DNA of 64,000 nucleotides from an uncultured Candidatus Peribacteria bacterium (GTDB lineage Bacteria > Patescibacteriota > Gracilibacteria > RBG-16-42-10). Location of the stretch: positions 310,001-374,000 of the forward strand of contig CAZERA010000001.1 of NCBI GenBank assembly GCA_964514565.1. The letters run 5' to 3'. Numbering within the stretch: position 1 is the stretch's first letter; each line of letters opens with the position of its first letter. The translations under genes were made by a program, and so were the position numbers. This document shows, piece after piece, positions 14,543 to 52,240 of this stretch. A model generated the notes under the pieces. The model saw only the letters and a list, made by a program, of their open reading frames with translations, searched no databases and had not been told where the DNA came from.

Positions 14543-14620
14543 TGGGACGCACGATGGGGCTCGAACCCACGACCCTCAGGACCACAACCTGATGCTCTAA
14601 CCAACTGAGCTACGTGCGTC
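14543..14620 (-). tRNA. tRNA-His(GUG) with encoded G-1:C73 and CCA
   Basis: G-ACGCACG..TCAGG-TTGTGGT-CCTGA..GGTTCGAG..CGTGCGT-C-CCA cloverleaf. Confidence 0.97.
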
Positions 14621-22543: not shown

Positions 22544-23602
22544 CTAGGTATTCTTAATGCGTTCAATAGCCCATGCTGCGTGTTCCTTTACTAAGTCAGA
22601 TGGATCGCTGGTTAGGGCAAGTAAGTACGGTAGTAGGTTTGAATCTTTGAGGTTACCAGCAACTACACAAGCATTTCGAATTAGCCCTACTCTTTTGGCT
22701 CTTAGAAATGGCGTGTTGGCAAAATATTTCTTGAATGTTTCTTGATCGGGAATGGTAAGAATCTTAATCAGAAAATCTTTGGAACTAGTGTATTGAGGAT
22801 TAGTTAAATCTGCCTCTATCTGAATATCTGACCATTTTTCAGGCACATAGGCTTTGGCTCGAATATTATGGGGGCAAACGTCTTGGCAAATGTCACAACC
22901 AAAGAGCCATGTACCCACTTTTTTTCGTAGCTCAAGTGGAATCGGACCTTTATTTTCGATTGTTAAATAAGAAATACAAAGTCGACTGTCTAATTCGTAC
23001 TCAGACGTGAGTGCTCCTGTTGGACACGCTGTGAGACATCTAGTACATGAACCACAGCTGCCTTGTGCTTGAACAGGTGAGGATGGTAATTCGGCAGTAG
23101 TAATGATTTCACCTAAAAGTACCCAGGAACCGTATTCTTTCGTAATAAGTGTAGTATTCTTGCCGATAAAACCCATGTGGGACTTACTAGCAAAACTTCG
23201 TTCCATGAGAGGACCATAGTCCACCGCGAAGCGATGATTAGTCTCTTGGAAGCTTTCAGAAAGTGAGGTACATAATTCGGCCAACTTCTGCTCAAATACT
23301 AAATGGTAATCAGGTTTGTTTTGGGCATATTGACCGACTCTAATCTGATCATTAGTGCTGGGTTGTGTTGCATAATTTAAGGCTACCATAATCACACTTT
23401 TGGCCTCAGGTAATATTTGTTCTGGATGACAGCGCTTAGCTGGATCTCGTGCTAAATAAGCCATATTGCCATGATGGTTTTTTTCTAACCATTGTAAAAA
23501 AGCAGCTTGATCTGAAGTCGGCATTTCTGTGTCACAGATCCCGACTAAATCAAAGCCAATTTTTTGCGCACATTGGTAAATGAGATTGACATCAGAGAGC
23601 AT
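22544..23602 (-). CDS. queG: Epoxyqueuosine reductase
   Basis: HGNM-x-YL, DYH, GFIGKN, GSW-x-LLGE, CGSCTRC-x-x-ACPT, CISYLTIE, GCDICQDVCPHN, RNA, HEAT-like C-terminus. Confidence 0.92.
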   Translation of the reverse strand: MLSDVNLIYQCAQKIGFDLVGICDTEMPTSDQAAFLQWLEKNHHGNMAYLARDPAKRCHPEQILPEAKSVIMVALNYATQPSTNDQIRVGQYAQNKPDYHLVFEQKLAELCTSLSESFQETNHRFAVDYGPLMERSFASKSHMGFIGKNTTLITKEYGSWVLLGEIITTAELPSSPVQAQGSCGSCTRCLTACPTGALTSEYELDSRLCISYLTIENKGPIPLELRKKVGTWLFGCDICQDVCPHNIRAKAYVPEKWSDIQIEADLTNPQYTSSKDFLIKILTIPDQETFKKYFANTPFLRAKRVGLIRNACVVAGNLKDSNLLPYLLALTSDPSDLVKEHAAWAIERIKNT

Positions 23603-23658
23603 AATGAAAAACCGCTAAGCTAATCGTCTCTATCCTAGCGATAAATCGTGCATATAAC

Positions 23659-23682
23659 AAAAAAGCCATCCAAGGATGACTT
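23659..23682 (-). terminator. Rho-independent terminator closing the putative long ncRNA
   Basis: Minus strand AAGTCATCC-TT-GGATGGCTTTTTT. Confidence 0.8.
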
Positions 23683-24341
23683 ATTTGTTTTTGTTGTGCC
23701 TCTCCTGTCCTATCAGCGATAGTATCATGTATTGCTGAGACGAGGAGTATGATTTTGTTTGTGAAGACAAGCTAGGGCTCTTGCTTGTATTCGTATCTCT
23801 ACCGCTCTTTGGTATGTTTAGGTCTTCACCTTGACCGTTCCCACCTTCAGTGAAATCTCTAGGAGATGACCCGTTGATGAGCATTAGAATTGGTGCGGCT
23901 CTTAGCCTTGAACCGTATTCGAGTAGTAGAGAAGAGAAAATATTTTTGAGATAAAAGTACTTTCTCTTCTCTGCTGAGGCATAACTGTGATGTGAAAGGG
24001 CAATAATGAGTTGAGGGGACCAAGCTTTGGACTTAGTCCTCAGCTCATTTTGGTTTTTGTTTTCTCGGCAAGCATTTTGGTTTTGGAGTTTTGTTATGGA
24101 TTGCCGAGGCTGCGACGATGTGTGTTATACAAGGCACACATGTGGGGGCCGGATTTCCCGGTTCATCGCTCCAAGAGAGGATCTATCGCAAGACAGTGTG
24201 AAAAATTTCAATTTTTGGTTGGGCTTGGAGATCTTGTCTGATTAGAACGATGAAAAGAAAATCGTGGTTAGAACTTTTTGTTCTATTGTTGTTGTCCGAG
24301 TTGTGAGGGGCGGTGAGTGCTCTGTCTGTTCAACTGAGCTT
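23659..24341 (-). ncRNA. Putative ~680-nt structured non-coding RNA of unknown class
   Basis: Bounded by a promoter and a terminator; at least 10 hairpins with G-U wobbles valid on the minus strand; A/C-rich linkers; no convincing ORF. Confidence 0.7.
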
Positions 24342-24347
24342 CAAATC

Positions 24348-24376
24348 AATATAACCATCCGTTAGTCGATCGTCAA
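24348..24376 (-). promoter_or_regulatory. Sigma70 promoter of the putative ncRNA
   Basis: Minus strand TTGACG-N17-TATATT. Confidence 0.75.
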
Positions 24377-24499
24377 TGATATAGAGCTGTACTTACCATT
24401 AGTCTCATTGTGTAATACTATTTGTTACAATGCATTAGATGTGGTTCTTTTGTTTTGTAGAAGTTATTTACTTGAGATTTTACCTATTACTCTGCTTGT

Positions 24500-24624
24500 G
24501 AGGTAAAAATGAAGAAGTAAGAGGTAAGAAGTGTATGTGCCTGCTCTCCGCAGAGGCGTAGGGACCCCTTTCTGAGCGGCTATTGTGTCCATCAACTTCT
24601 TACCTCTTATCTTTTACTTCTTAC
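24500..24624. repeat. Inverted-repeat element with heptamer arms (GTAAGAG/CTCTTAC), copy 1
   Basis: gaggtaaaaatgaagaagtaagaggtaagaag ... cttcttacctcttatcttttacttcttac; similar to 56116-56235. Confidence 0.65.
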
Positions 24625-24664
24625 TACCTAAGCCTAAGATAGCACCGTACTTAAAGAAAAAACT

Positions 24665-25126
24665 ATGCAGGAATTGTTATTAGAGGGCACAGTGGCTCCT
24701 CAGTTCACCGTACCATCTACTAGTGGCCACGAGGTGAGTCTGGCTGATTTGAAAGGTAAAAAGGTAGTATTGTACTTCTATCCTAAAGATGACACGCCTG
24801 GATGTACTAAAGAGGCTTGTGCTTTTAGAGACAAGACTGAGGAACTCACTGACAAAGGAGCTATTGTACTCGGGGTGAGCCGTGACAGTATTGCTAAGCA
24901 CGATAAATTCCGAGCTAAGTTTCATTTAAACTTTGATTTGCTCAGTGATGAAGCTGGCACAATCTCTGATGCTTATCATGCTTGGGGTGAGAAGAGTATG
25001 TATGGTCGTAAGTATATGGGTATGTTCCGAGTGACGTATGTTATTGATGAGGAAGGTAAGATTCTCAAGGTATTTCCAAAGGTTGATCCTGTGAAGCATG
25101 CAGATCAGATCTTGGCGGTACTATAA
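24665..25126 (+). CDS. bcp: Thioredoxin-dependent thiol peroxidase (BCP/PrxQ)
   Basis: LYFYPKDDTPGCTKEAC-x-FRD. Confidence 0.95.
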   Translation: MQELLLEGTVAPQFTVPSTSGHEVSLADLKGKKVVLYFYPKDDTPGCTKEACAFRDKTEELTDKGAIVLGVSRDSIAKHDKFRAKFHLNFDLLSDEAGTISDAYHAWGEKSMYGRKYMGMFRVTYVIDEEGKILKVFPKVDPVKHADQILAVL

Positions 25127-52156: not shown

Positions 52157-52240
52157 TGGTGCCGAAGGAGGGAGTCGAACCCTCATACCTTTCGATACAC
52201 GATTTTGAGTCGTGCGCGTCTGCCATTCCGCCACTTCGGC
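52157..52240 (-). tRNA. tRNA-Leu(CAA) with encoded CCA
   Basis: GCCGAAG-TGGCGGAATGGCAGACGCG-CACGA-CTCAAAA-TCGTG, long variable arm, GGTTCGACT, CTTCGGC-ACCA. Confidence 0.97.

Follow-up and report, generated by a model that had tools for sequence, protein, structure and literature searches.

A large structured non-coding RNA in one CPR family with an invariant loop motif complementary to the 5' end of a small RNA

The minus strand of the window, a 64,000-nucleotide (nt) stretch of DNA from an uncultured Candidatus Peribacteria bacterium, encodes a large, structured, stand-alone non-coding RNA of ~683 nt (positions 23659 to 24341, which correspond to C1:333659-334341 of the source genome, G000). 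Here, we report its gene, structure, distribution and complementarity to a second RNA, the newly found element being an invariant, accessible loop motif, CCAUAACAAAACUCCA, that is complementary to the front end of a small RNA encoded elsewhere in the genome. Judging from the genomes searched, the large RNA appears to be specific to one lineage, a single CPR family.

RESULTS

Transcription unit and coding capacity

The initial annotation of this DNA placed a minus-strand promoter and an intrinsic terminator around a region without a credible open reading frame (ORF). Both signals were found, and both are kept in all eight homologues:

24348..24376, minus strand: sigma-70-type promoter TTGACG-N17-TATATT, 10/12 match to the consensus; the -35 and -10 boxes align in 8/8 homologues, with a variable spacer
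23659..24341, minus strand: inferred transcript of ~683 nt, its ends deduced from the promoter and the terminator
23659..23682, minus strand: intrinsic terminator, a hairpin (23682-23663) followed by a U-run (T-run in the DNA); consensus helix 15, with GGCUUUUUU invariant

The homologues measure 677 to 811 nt when the count begins 6 nt before the inferred start. Among the sites listed by a scan of positions 23300 to 24900, only one promoter and one terminator belong to the RNA span, and a second, weaker promoter-like site lies within queG (23498-23471). Since the number of such sites in the scanned region does not exceed that in shuffled sequences (promoters, 2 versus 3.3±1.5; terminators, 1 versus 1.2±1.1), the case for the transcription unit rests on the placement and conservation of the signals. 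The 67-amino-acid (aa) ORF within the span (23681-23884) is not conserved among the homologues, which bears out the claim that no credible ORF is present: its frame contains 2 to 7 stops in six of seven homologues, the length of the segment differs by a non-multiple of 3 in five of seven, and the variable columns display no codon periodicity (23/64, 32/68 and 28/64 by position). With a conserved frame and a codon-position bias both absent, the large RNA was rejected as a protein-coding gene. The promoter proposed for queG (TTGTTA-N17-TAGGAT) is present in the sequence, but it matches the consensus at 8 of 12 positions only and is not listed by the scan. The RNA can be regarded as independent of queG, as had been suggested, because one of the eight genomes (G004) keeps it with no queG downstream.

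Assembled RNA contigs of 154 to 173 nt, with zero differing letters, cover positions 24056 to 24242, a span that takes in the 16-nt motif, in all four metatranscriptome runs considered (three studies); these contigs reach only ~190 nt of the large RNA, and DNA may have been present in the RNA libraries. The same four runs yielded no RNA contig with a good match over queG or bcp, and none was seen over the large RNA outside 24056 to 24242, which is not evidence of absence.

Fold, covariation and parts of the large RNA

The minus strand folds with a minimum free energy of -187.7 kcal/mol versus -139.7±6.1 kcal/mol in 20 shuffles (z, -7.94), and is thus more stable than shuffled sequence; z is -4.64 for the plus strand. 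Four G-U pairs (columns 105/208, 117/195, 131/172 and 853/868) are invariant in all eight sequences, in agreement with the strand-specific wobbles pointed out earlier, and would turn into A-C mismatches if the plus strand were transcribed. The consensus structure comprises 118 pairs, and 96.0% of its 941 cells are paired. Covariation is evident among the homologues from related genomes: compensatory changes on both sides occur in 22 of the 118 pairs versus 13.2±2.0 in shuffles, none of 500 shuffles reaches 22, and six slid controls give 0 to 4 such pairs.

From the 5' to the 3' end, the RNA is composed of the following parts:

24334..24347, minus strand: conserved 5' end UGAAG(C)U, in invariant columns
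24149..24266, minus strand: conserved 5' domain, a 23-pair irregular long hairpin around an inner 7-pair hairpin (helices 2 and 3)
24216..24233, minus strand: nearly invariant stretch GAUCUCCAAGCCCAACCA within the 5' domain, unpaired in the consensus
24118..24141, minus strand: variable hairpin AUGUGUG/CACACAU (aligned stems by eye and local folds, no pair counts)
24064..24108, minus strand: hairpin of CUCGGCAA with UUGCCGAG, motif in the loop (aligned stems by eye and local folds, no pair counts)
24084..24099, minus strand: invariant 16-nt motif CCAUAACAAAACUCCA, complementary to the 5' end of the partner small RNA
24005..24049, minus strand: hairpin with a ~19-bp stem (helices 4 and 5 and local folds), structure kept despite sequence divergence
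23925..23975, minus strand: long A/U-rich hairpin of 22 pairs (helix 6), six of them changed on both sides
23791..23922, minus strand: conserved 3' multi-branch domain with a closing stem, a hairpin, a nested three-helix arm and two more hairpins (helices 7 to 13)
23766..23790, minus strand: hairpin CAAGC/GCUUG, its loop with a conserved GAG(C/U)C
23702..23747, minus strand: conserved 3' hairpin of 15 pairs (helix 14), 99.2% of cells paired
24048..24063, 24283..24297, 23746..23763 and 23680..23698, minus strand: four conserved, G-poor, A/C-rich linkers

Fast-evolving hairpins with A/C-rich single strands thus lie between the conserved 5' and 3' domains, for which the column identity is 82% (alignment A2) and 83% (alignment A3), respectively. 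Five pairs of the 5' domain are changed on both sides. No partner was found for GAUCUCCAAGCCCAACCA, a 14-mer match at C3:12995 of the source genome being located inside a 1259-aa ORF. Four pairs (GCUC/GAGC) may join the 5' end to the loop of the hairpin at 23766-23790; this pairing (helix 1) is tentative because it includes no double compensatory change. Stems are kept while their sequences change: the 24118-24141 stem is AUGUAUG/CAUACAU in G001 and G002 and GACUCU/AGAGUC or GAUUCU/AGAAUC in G004 and G006, the stem of the motif hairpin consists of CUUAAG-type sequences in the latter two genomes, and the 23766-23790 stem is CAAAC/GUUUG in G006. G-poor, A/C-rich linkers had been described earlier, and four are conserved; AACAAAA occurs at four places, in the motif and in three of the linkers (its enrichment being an estimate).

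Of the 11 hairpins in the initial annotation, seven are kept across genomes, but four are not conserved. The former include those at 24005-24049, 23928-23972, 23896-23915, 23767-23788 and 23703-23746, as judged from pair counts or local folds, and those at 24118-24141 and 24064-24108, as judged by eye from aligned stems and from local folds. The hairpin at 24270-24284 is specific to the source genome, while those at 24247-24265, 24169-24230 and 24149-24162 are displaced by a different, long-range covarying pairing; the CUCCAAG/CUUGGAG and CCGG-GAAAU-CCGG hairpins were rejected, since the alternative pairing covaries.

Distribution and neighborhood

The large RNA is present as a single copy at a fixed position in all eight genomes of one CPR family. 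It follows bcp in each of them, queG lies downstream on the same strand in seven, and G004 has other genes there; nothing about these neighbors (bcp, queG and a gene for a beta-CASP-type hydrolase) is out of the ordinary, and a gene order shared inside a single family is not very informative. It is conserved above the flanking genes and occupies the fourth-largest ORF-free gap of the genome. In the source genome only, a dispersed palindromic repeat is located directly upstream.

A model of the 3' domain (R1) scored 138 to 151 bits in the eight family genomes, and a model of the 5' domain (R2) likewise detected all eight. The large RNA was not found in the one sister-family genome (G008), where R1 was negative also without strict filters. 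R2 had no match among 142 other genomes of the class sample; the two weak R1 matches there (23.4 and 21.5 bits) were treated as chance, one being inside a 491-aa ORF and the other in a 615-nt ORF-free gap of G082 that contains neither the 16-nt motif nor any other similarity to the large RNA. Scans with a 27-nt degenerate motif added no new lineage, the three loci from metagenomes and the six from the genome collection being identical or nearly identical to known sequences. Fourteen DNA runs, with shares of 0.42 to 0.78, were labeled as wastewater, sludge, bioreactor, sediment or groundwater.

Relationship to known RNA families

At the gathering threshold, the Rfam 15 models, among them those of riboswitches, 6S RNA and SRP RNA, matched only two tRNAs in the whole window and nothing in the RNA; at E values up to 10, the best score, 25 bits, belonged to a microRNA model (gathering score, 100) on the long hairpin. 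The partner small-RNA locus had no Rfam match either. The initial annotation had assigned the RNA to the OLE/ROOL size class, and the size class is indeed shared, but membership is excluded by the covariance models. The RNA is also distinct from RNase P RNA and tmRNA, as stated at the time, both of which are encoded elsewhere in the source genome (C1:276175-276571, 192.5 bits, and C1:18368-18783, 101.6 bits, respectively). The signal recognition particle (SRP) RNA model RF00169 had no match in the source genome at E values up to 10 and none in 41 class-sample genomes at E values up to 0.001, RF01854 had no match in the source genome, and the Ffh M domain (PF02978) was detected in none of the 41 class-sample genomes versus 14 of 14 controls. 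Either RNA as the missing SRP RNA was therefore rejected, the Ffh M domain being missing across the class sample as well. That many CPR bacteria have lost SRP subunits has been published (PMC8080830).

Partner small RNA and the 16-nt match

The partner is a candidate small RNA of ~120 nt, encoded outside the window on the minus strand at approximately C1:40206-40087 of the source genome, ~294 kb from the large RNA. In all eight genomes, the motif is the exact complement of its first 14 to 19 nt: the complementary stretch begins where transcription is predicted to start, includes GGAGUUUUGUUAUG as a minimum in every genome and extends to 19 nt in one copy of G007. Six genomes have one copy of the motif, while G005 and G007 have two near-exact copies and a third, degenerate one. 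Allowing up to one mismatch, the 16-mer occurs at two kinds of locus in every genome, namely, the large RNA (one to three copies) and one other, and only three further one-mismatch sites exist across all eight genomes.

The small-RNA block is nearly invariant (93% column identity, above the adjacent genes). Its conserved minus-strand promoter, TTGACA-N17-TAGAAT, matches the consensus at 11 of 12 positions, with TTGACA invariant, and its predicted fold is a 42-pair rod followed by a U-run. Ten of the 11 variable pairs are standard in all eight sequences, mostly via G-U pairs that are valid on the minus strand only, and pair 61/134 is broken in one sequence. A model of the small RNA (R3) was found in 8/8 family genomes and in 0/1 sister genome, the same distribution as that of the large RNA, with one weak partial match only among the 142 other class genomes.

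According to the fold predictions, the motif is open, with a mean unpaired probability of 0.72 to 1.0 at the main copies versus 0.42 to 0.44 for the whole RNA, and the predicted dimer contains a 16-bp duplex in all four pairs tested (of eight). In silico, the large RNA thus has one feature expected of a base-pairing sponge or decoy, an accessible stretch that complements the end by which the small RNA would pair. The duplex energy in six genomes, -26.4 to -29.4 kcal/mol, lies 1.3 to 3.2 standard deviations below shuffles and does not discriminate there; the best shuffle beats the real duplex in seven of the eight genomes, G007 alone being clear of the shuffles. The 5' end of the small RNA is already paired to its own 3' arm, and the net predicted gain is small (-0.9 to -7.8 kcal/mol). 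For a 690-nt query in a 1.1-Mb genome, we estimate ~0.35 chance matches of a 16-mer, which is not rare.

Other exact matches of at least 12 nt between the large RNA and the genome extend to 14 to 15 nt at most; of four examined as possible partners, three are inside ORFs of 295 to 1259 aa, and the fourth is in an A/T-rich gap of low complexity that only a 64-aa ORF overlaps; all were discarded. A search of the eight genomes for conserved mRNA targets of the small RNA was negative: additional exact 11-mer sites numbered 10 versus 8 for a reversed-pattern control and fell in unrelated gene contexts. One 15/16 site is located 9 to 22 nt before an ABC-2-type ORF in the source genome only.

DISCUSSION

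We lean, on balance and with some reserve, towards a lineage-specific structured RNA with its own promoter and terminator that captures the small RNA by pairing, in order to sequester or carry it. The motif hairpin, of which two genomes have two or three, would hold the 16-nt motif open in its loop, and the large RNA would capture its partner by base pairing between this loop and GGAGUUUUGUUAUG at the partner's 5' end; upon duplex formation, the stem of the small RNA itself would be opened at its base, and the captured molecule would then be either sequestered (sponge or decoy) or carried in a two-RNA particle. That the pairing takes place in the cell, and which RNA controls which, we infer from the sequences. 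Since the motif and the small-RNA 5' end are both invariant, the intermolecular duplex cannot show covariation, and the eight family genomes amount to roughly one observation of the match. As no conserved mRNA target was found, a classical sponge role would be left without its third party, and the two large conserved structured domains, being more than a sponge would need, count against the capture reading. It is conceivable, if somewhat doubtful, that the two RNAs instead constitute a dedicated machine of this CPR family only, with the complex as the working unit, which may control ribosome access or be a new ribonucleoprotein; the large RNA would then serve as a folded platform, its loops unzipping and retaining the 5' arm of the rod, which resembles a ribosome binding site (RBS; GGAG-N7-AUG). 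The setting of such a machine would be cells in which Hfq, CsrA, SRP RNA and the Ffh M domain were not detected.

The large RNA could also be a protein-binding scaffold, as in the OLE RNA-protein particle, with the linkers and domains as protein sites and the small-RNA match secondary or accidental. The two domains at 82 to 83% column identity with their invariant unpaired stretches, the four conserved A/C-rich linkers, an estimated chance of a 16-mer match that is not rare in one genome and a duplex energy that is unremarkable in six genomes all agree with a scaffold; nevertheless, we consider it unlikely, as no candidate protein partner was identified (neither an Hfq nor a CsrA gene was found in the source genome, which is 92.7% complete), the neighbors bcp, queG and the beta-CASP-type hydrolase gene are ordinary, with synteny uninformative within one family, and the multiplication of the motif in G005 and G007, as well as its start at the first base of the small RNA, would be left unexplained. 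As for the protein sponge envisaged in the initial annotation, nothing tested points to it, and the sequence itself points only to an RNA partner. We would give still less weight to the notion that the small partner is a tiny mRNA (GGAG, 7 nt, AUG; a peptide of 28 to 72 aa) repressed by the large RNA as a trans-acting antisense over the Shine-Dalgarno (SD)-AUG region, in the manner of a type I toxin-antitoxin system. The complementarity common to the eight genomes does extend from the start of GGAG to the end of AUG, the frame is open for at least 28 codons in 8/8 and at least 37 codons in 7/8 genomes, the 5' end folds back to pair with the 3' arm, and RNase III is encoded in the genome. On the other hand, (i) the first 28 codons have eight amino-acid-changing versus two silent sites (hand count), a pattern of RNA constraint; (ii) the stop is not conserved, the frame passing the U-run into unconserved sequence in seven of eight genomes and giving 28 to 72 aa; (iii) the 28 residues include nine charged ones and no hydrophobic stretch; (iv) only six predicted proteins match, all 84 to 94% identical; and (v) the genes are ~294 kb apart rather than adjacent. 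A type I toxin-antitoxin pair as such is not supported, given that a conserved hydrophobic peptide ORF with a conserved stop is absent and that the loci are unlinked.

Two further explanations dispense with a partner RNA. QueG acts in the synthesis of queuosine, a pathway with known riboswitches, and queG is next on the same strand in seven of eight genomes, which would suit a long regulatory leader (riboswitch or attenuator). This is very improbable in view of G004, which keeps the RNA with other genes downstream, and of a terminator that is invariant and follows an unstructured A/C-rich linker, with no alternative pairing seen in the consensus; preQ1, cobalamin and other riboswitch models had no match at E values up to 10, and the riboswitches known to us are all several-fold shorter than 683 nt. 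A decayed gene or mobile-element relic without RNA function, to which the fourth-largest ORF-free gap of the genome and the dispersed palindromic repeat just upstream might point, has the least credit with us: the structure is preserved by compensatory changes, for which the covariation controls speak, conservation exceeds that of the flanking genes, the locus is single-copy at a fixed position in 8/8 genomes, its promoter and terminator are conserved, and the upstream repeat is confined to the source genome.

To our knowledge, structured bacterial RNAs above ~500 nt outside the ribosome are very few, and each has either revealed unexpected biology or stays unexplained. A literature search found no described regulatory RNA for this CPR lineage. 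The capture of a small RNA, which we favor, offers what most orphan RNAs lack, a concrete handle: an RNA partner is predicted, and the 16-nt contact with it can be disrupted by mutation and then restored. Should the pairing prove real, RNA-RNA regulation would operate in a cell where no Hfq was found, and the small RNA would have an RNA partner of unusual complexity; the reach is limited to eight genomes of one family, none of them cultured.

Comparison with known systems

The functions of the large structured bacterial RNAs OLE, ROOL, GOLLD, HEARO and raiA, all non-coding, are known in part or not at all. The large RNA resembles these RNAs in its size of several hundred nt, its many covarying helices, its narrow range, its own transcription unit and its non-coding nature, but it matches none of their covariance models at E values up to 10, it is a single-copy chromosomal locus at a fixed position with no link to a prophage or mobile element, and it is limited to one CPR family and has a predicted RNA partner.

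Repeated single-stranded motifs are found in protein-sponge RNAs such as CsrB/RsmZ, which bind CsrA, and CrcZ, which binds Hfq/Crc. Short motifs repeated in loops and linkers between hairpins are common to these and the large RNA, whose A/C-rich linkers recall the A-rich sites of CrcZ; in contrast, CsrA and Hfq were not found here, GGA loop motifs are absent, and the motif conserved best extends over 16 nt and is matched by an exactly complementary RNA. In the type I toxin-antitoxin pairs hok/sok and aapA1/isoA1, the toxin mRNAs are inhibited by folding back. Here too, the RBS region of a small transcript is paired to its own 3' end and a second RNA is complementary to it, whereas the loci are ~294 kb apart, the peptide is not hydrophobic, its stop is not conserved, and the "antitoxin" would be a 683-nt structured RNA.

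Known base-pairing sponges of small RNAs are short and often pieces of mRNAs or tRNA spacers. The large RNA differs from them in its ~683 nt with two conserved structured domains, in that neither Hfq nor a conserved mRNA target was found and in that the pairing end of its partner is pre-folded in a rod. What it shares with SroC, the sponge of GcvB (PMC4474525), and with a sponge RNA of Vibrio cholerae (PMC9732341) is an accessible perfect complement to the functional end of a small RNA and a number of sites that varies among relatives.

Structure and coding potential of the large RNA

About 683 nt of the minus strand are enclosed by a promoter and a terminator. Both signals, proposed in the initial annotation, are present at their minus-strand positions and hold in an alignment of eight homologues, in which the spacers vary but both promoter boxes are retained, as is the terminator stem together with GGCUUUUUU. 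The promoter and terminator count in the scanned region was not above that of shuffles, so the case for these signals rests on where they lie and on their conservation. The elements, all on the minus strand, are as follows.

24376-24348, minus: promoter TTGACG-N17-TATATT, 10/12 matches
24266-24149, minus: 5' domain, 23 pairs around an inner hairpin of 7 pairs, consensus-supported
24099-24084, minus: 16-nt loop motif CCAUAACAAAACUCCA, best-conserved piece of the variable centre
23975-23925, minus: A/U-rich hairpin of 22 pairs, consensus-supported
23922-23791, minus: multi-branch 3' domain, consensus-supported
23682-23663, minus: terminator, 8-pair hairpin and T-run; consensus-supported, as are two additional hairpins

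The minimum free energy of the minus strand was -187.7 kcal/mol, compared with -139.7±6.1 kcal/mol for 20 shuffles (z -7.94), so the suggested check of folding against shuffles came out in favor of a structured RNA; the plus strand gave a z of -4.64. The region is not coding, as had been read from the sequence: among ORFs of the RNA strand, the longest (67 aa, 23681-23884) contains 2-7 in-frame stops in 6/7 homologues, differs in length by other than a multiple of three in 5/7 homologue segments, and lacks codon periodicity (variable columns 23/64, 32/68, and 28/64), and the longest ORFs of the homologues differ among themselves in position and frame.

An RNAalifold consensus from the eight full-length sequences comprises 118 pairs, with standard pairing in 96.0% of 941 cells. 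Changes on both sides were found in 22 pairs, against 13.2±2.0 in column shuffles (22 reached in 0/500) and 0-4 in six slid controls, in which the 3' partner was moved by 1-3 columns. Four G-U pairs are invariant across all eight sequences, which fixes the strand of the RNA. The proposed chain of hairpins needed revision: those at 24247-24265, 24169-24230, and 24149-24162 are kept only among the closest relatives and give way to a long-range, covarying pairing of GAUUUUCU with GGGAAAUC and CAUCGUUCUAA with UUGGAGCGAUG, and that at 24270-24284 is restricted to the source genome. The centre (approximately 24148-23976) aligns poorly and folds in every genome to 3-6 hairpins with A/C-rich single strands between them; in aligned stems read by eye, equivalent stems change compensatorily, for example, from CUCGGCAA/UUGCCGAG to a CUUAAG-type stem.

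Distribution and identity

By DNA search, the large-RNA region is single-copy in all eight genomes of one family (71-86% identity for full-length matches) and was not found in the sister family (n = 1 genome). Covariance models of the 3' core (R1) and 5' domain (R2) scored 138-151 and 103-138 bits, respectively, across the eight genomes. Among 142 other genomes of the class, R2 had no match and R1 had two, of 21-23 bits, judged to be chance on inspection. A conserved 27-nt piece occurs in six public genome records, titled as uncultured Candidatus Peribacteria (4), Abawacabacteria (1), and Gracilibacteria (1), and a metagenome scan returned near-duplicates only.

The weak R1 match of 23 bits lies in a genome from another family of the class (G082), in a 615-nt gap (locus L043, 1184-1798) without ORFs of at least 60 aa and with several hairpins; it gave no evidence of homology. 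Two more internal gaps of >1 kb without ORFs of at least 100 aa lie in the source genome, G000, at C1:478814-479952 and C1:239827-240878.

The syntenic order is a beta-CASP hydrolase gene, bcp (opposite strand), the large RNA, and queG. Genome G004 retains the RNA beside genes other than queG; the RNA is therefore not tied to queG, in agreement with its description as a stand-alone RNA. Between bcp and the promoter, at 24500-24660, lies a ~130-nt palindrome (arms GGTAAGAAGT..., ...ACTTCTTACC). It belongs to a dispersed repeat, of which the G000 contigs carry dozens of copies, some full and some partial, and it is missing at the same position in relatives.

At threshold, Rfam 15 yielded two tRNA genes in the window and no other family.

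14546-14619, minus: tRNA gene
52160-52240, minus: tRNA gene

The large-RNA region itself returned only microRNA and snoRNA noise at E up to 10, so no known family matches it. RNase P RNA and tmRNA are located elsewhere in the genome, and the 6S and SRP RNA models had no match, which upholds the earlier exclusion of these four identities. Neither the small SRP RNA (RF00169) nor the Ffh M domain (PF02978; control 14/14) was found in the 41 class-sample genomes G000-G040 (0/41 each). That many CPR bacteria have lost SRP subunits is stated in a published account (PMC8080830).

Expression

Metatranscriptome cover was drawn from four of the six RNA runs listed (three studies). Each of the four contained one contig of 154-173 nt with zero differing letters over 24056-24242, which is part of the 5' domain plus the motif hairpin; other contig pieces on the flanks were few, short, and diverged and continued unlike the window. 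These contigs, which carry no information on strand or transcript ends and come from libraries that may contain DNA, weakly hint at an abundant large RNA or a stable part of one.

A small RNA complementary to the loop motif

The loop motif is invariant in 7/8 genomes, with one change in G006, and lies in a hairpin loop in every case. G005 and G007 have three copies each, the 5'-most being degenerate (one and two mismatches, respectively); the second-best copy of G005 has one mismatch. With up to two mismatches, the 16-mer has 30 sites in the family genomes, of which 12 belong to the large RNA, 8 to a second locus that is orthologous among the genomes, and 10 are scattered; a reversed-pattern control gave 12.

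G000 C1:40087-40243 (L053 2088-2244), outside the window: small-RNA gene and promoter, present in 8/8 family genomes

This locus, ~294 kb from the large RNA in G000, has an fpg-like gene on one side and a nifS-like gene on the other. The block of ~120 nt shows 93% column identity, its flanking genes being far more diverged. Its promoter, TTGACA-N17-TAGAAT (11/12), lies on the strand that does not carry the motif; TTGACA is invariant, the -10 box reads TAGAAT or TATAGT, and the spacing is fixed. The predicted fold is a 42-pair rod with paired 5' and 3' ends, followed by a U-run. Ten of 11 variable rod pairs are still standard in all eight sequences, mostly as G-U, which would be C-A mismatches on the other strand; pair 61/134 is broken in one. 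The covariance model R3 found the small RNA in 8/8 family genomes and 0/1 sister genome, with a single weak partial match among the 142 others, and no Rfam family matches it. The RNA begins with (U)GGAGUUUUGUUAUGG, within 0-2 bases of the predicted first nucleotide, and GGAGUUUUGUUAUGG is exactly complementary to the loop motif. All eight genomes share GGAGUUUUGUUAUG of this complement, which one G007 copy lengthens to 19 nt.

The small RNA is thus a predicted partner of the large RNA, and the motif shifts our reading of the latter toward RNA-RNA pairing. Several observations favor this prediction: (i) the two RNAs co-occur; (ii) the motif is invariant within a fast-evolving region and its copy number is higher in one genus; (iii) predicted accessibility at the main motif copies is 0.72-1.0 against a mean of 0.42-0.44; (iv) complementarity starts at the predicted transcription start of the small RNA; and (v) predicted dimers hold the 16-bp duplex in all four genome pairs tested (of eight). 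Four points weigh against it. Both partners are invariant, hence there is no intermolecular covariation, and the eight genomes come close to a single observation. By our estimate, a 690-nt query has ~0.35 chance 16-mer matches in a 1.1-Mb genome, and chance 14-15-mer matches between the large RNA and the genome do occur. Duplex energy is within the shuffle range in seven genomes. The 5' end of the small RNA already pairs with an imperfect motif copy in its own 3' arm, which leaves a net predicted gain of just -0.9 to -7.8 kcal/mol. What makes the match notable, as an argument rather than a test, is that it coincides with the initial bases of the one other noncoding element with deep conservation that it could have met.

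An improbable alternative is that the small RNA is a tiny mRNA: its first 14 nt read GGAG, 7 nt, and AUG, and in all eight genomes the ensuing frame stays open over 28 codons or more. Against this, we counted eight amino-acid-changing sites and two silent ones, the stop is not conserved (in 7/8 genomes the frame passes the U-run), and the peptide is charged, not hydrophobic, with just six close relatives among predicted proteins. Returning to a small RNA that would pair with the large one, exact 11-mer sites in the family genomes revealed no conserved mRNA target; sites outside both loci numbered 10, against 8 in the control, with no gene context in common. A 15/16 motif copy at G000 C4:19649-19664 (L054), inside the final codons of a 476-aa ORF and 9-22 nt upstream of the ATG that opens a 261-aa ABC-2-type ORF, would be complementary to the small-RNA 5' end; it occurs in G000 only and is not kept in relatives. 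RNase III is encoded in G000 (92.7% complete), in which no Hfq and no CsrA were found. With no conserved mRNA target and neither protein found, the classical sponge model of the large RNA is incomplete, and a dedicated complex of the two RNAs is equally likely.

Comparison with known RNAs

We rate the large RNA as a new RNA family, of solid interest yet confined to one lineage. Literature searches on Abawacabacteria, the candidate phyla radiation, and Patescibacteria turned up no account of a regulatory or structured RNA in this lineage. By size and ornateness, we would group it with OLE, ROOL, GOLLD, and similar RNAs; the size class assigned to it initially stands, but it matches none of their Rfam models, which excludes membership in those families. 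The only feature that can be interpreted, the complementary motif with its predicted pairing, likens it to base-pairing sponges and trans antisense RNAs, but it is far bigger and more structured.
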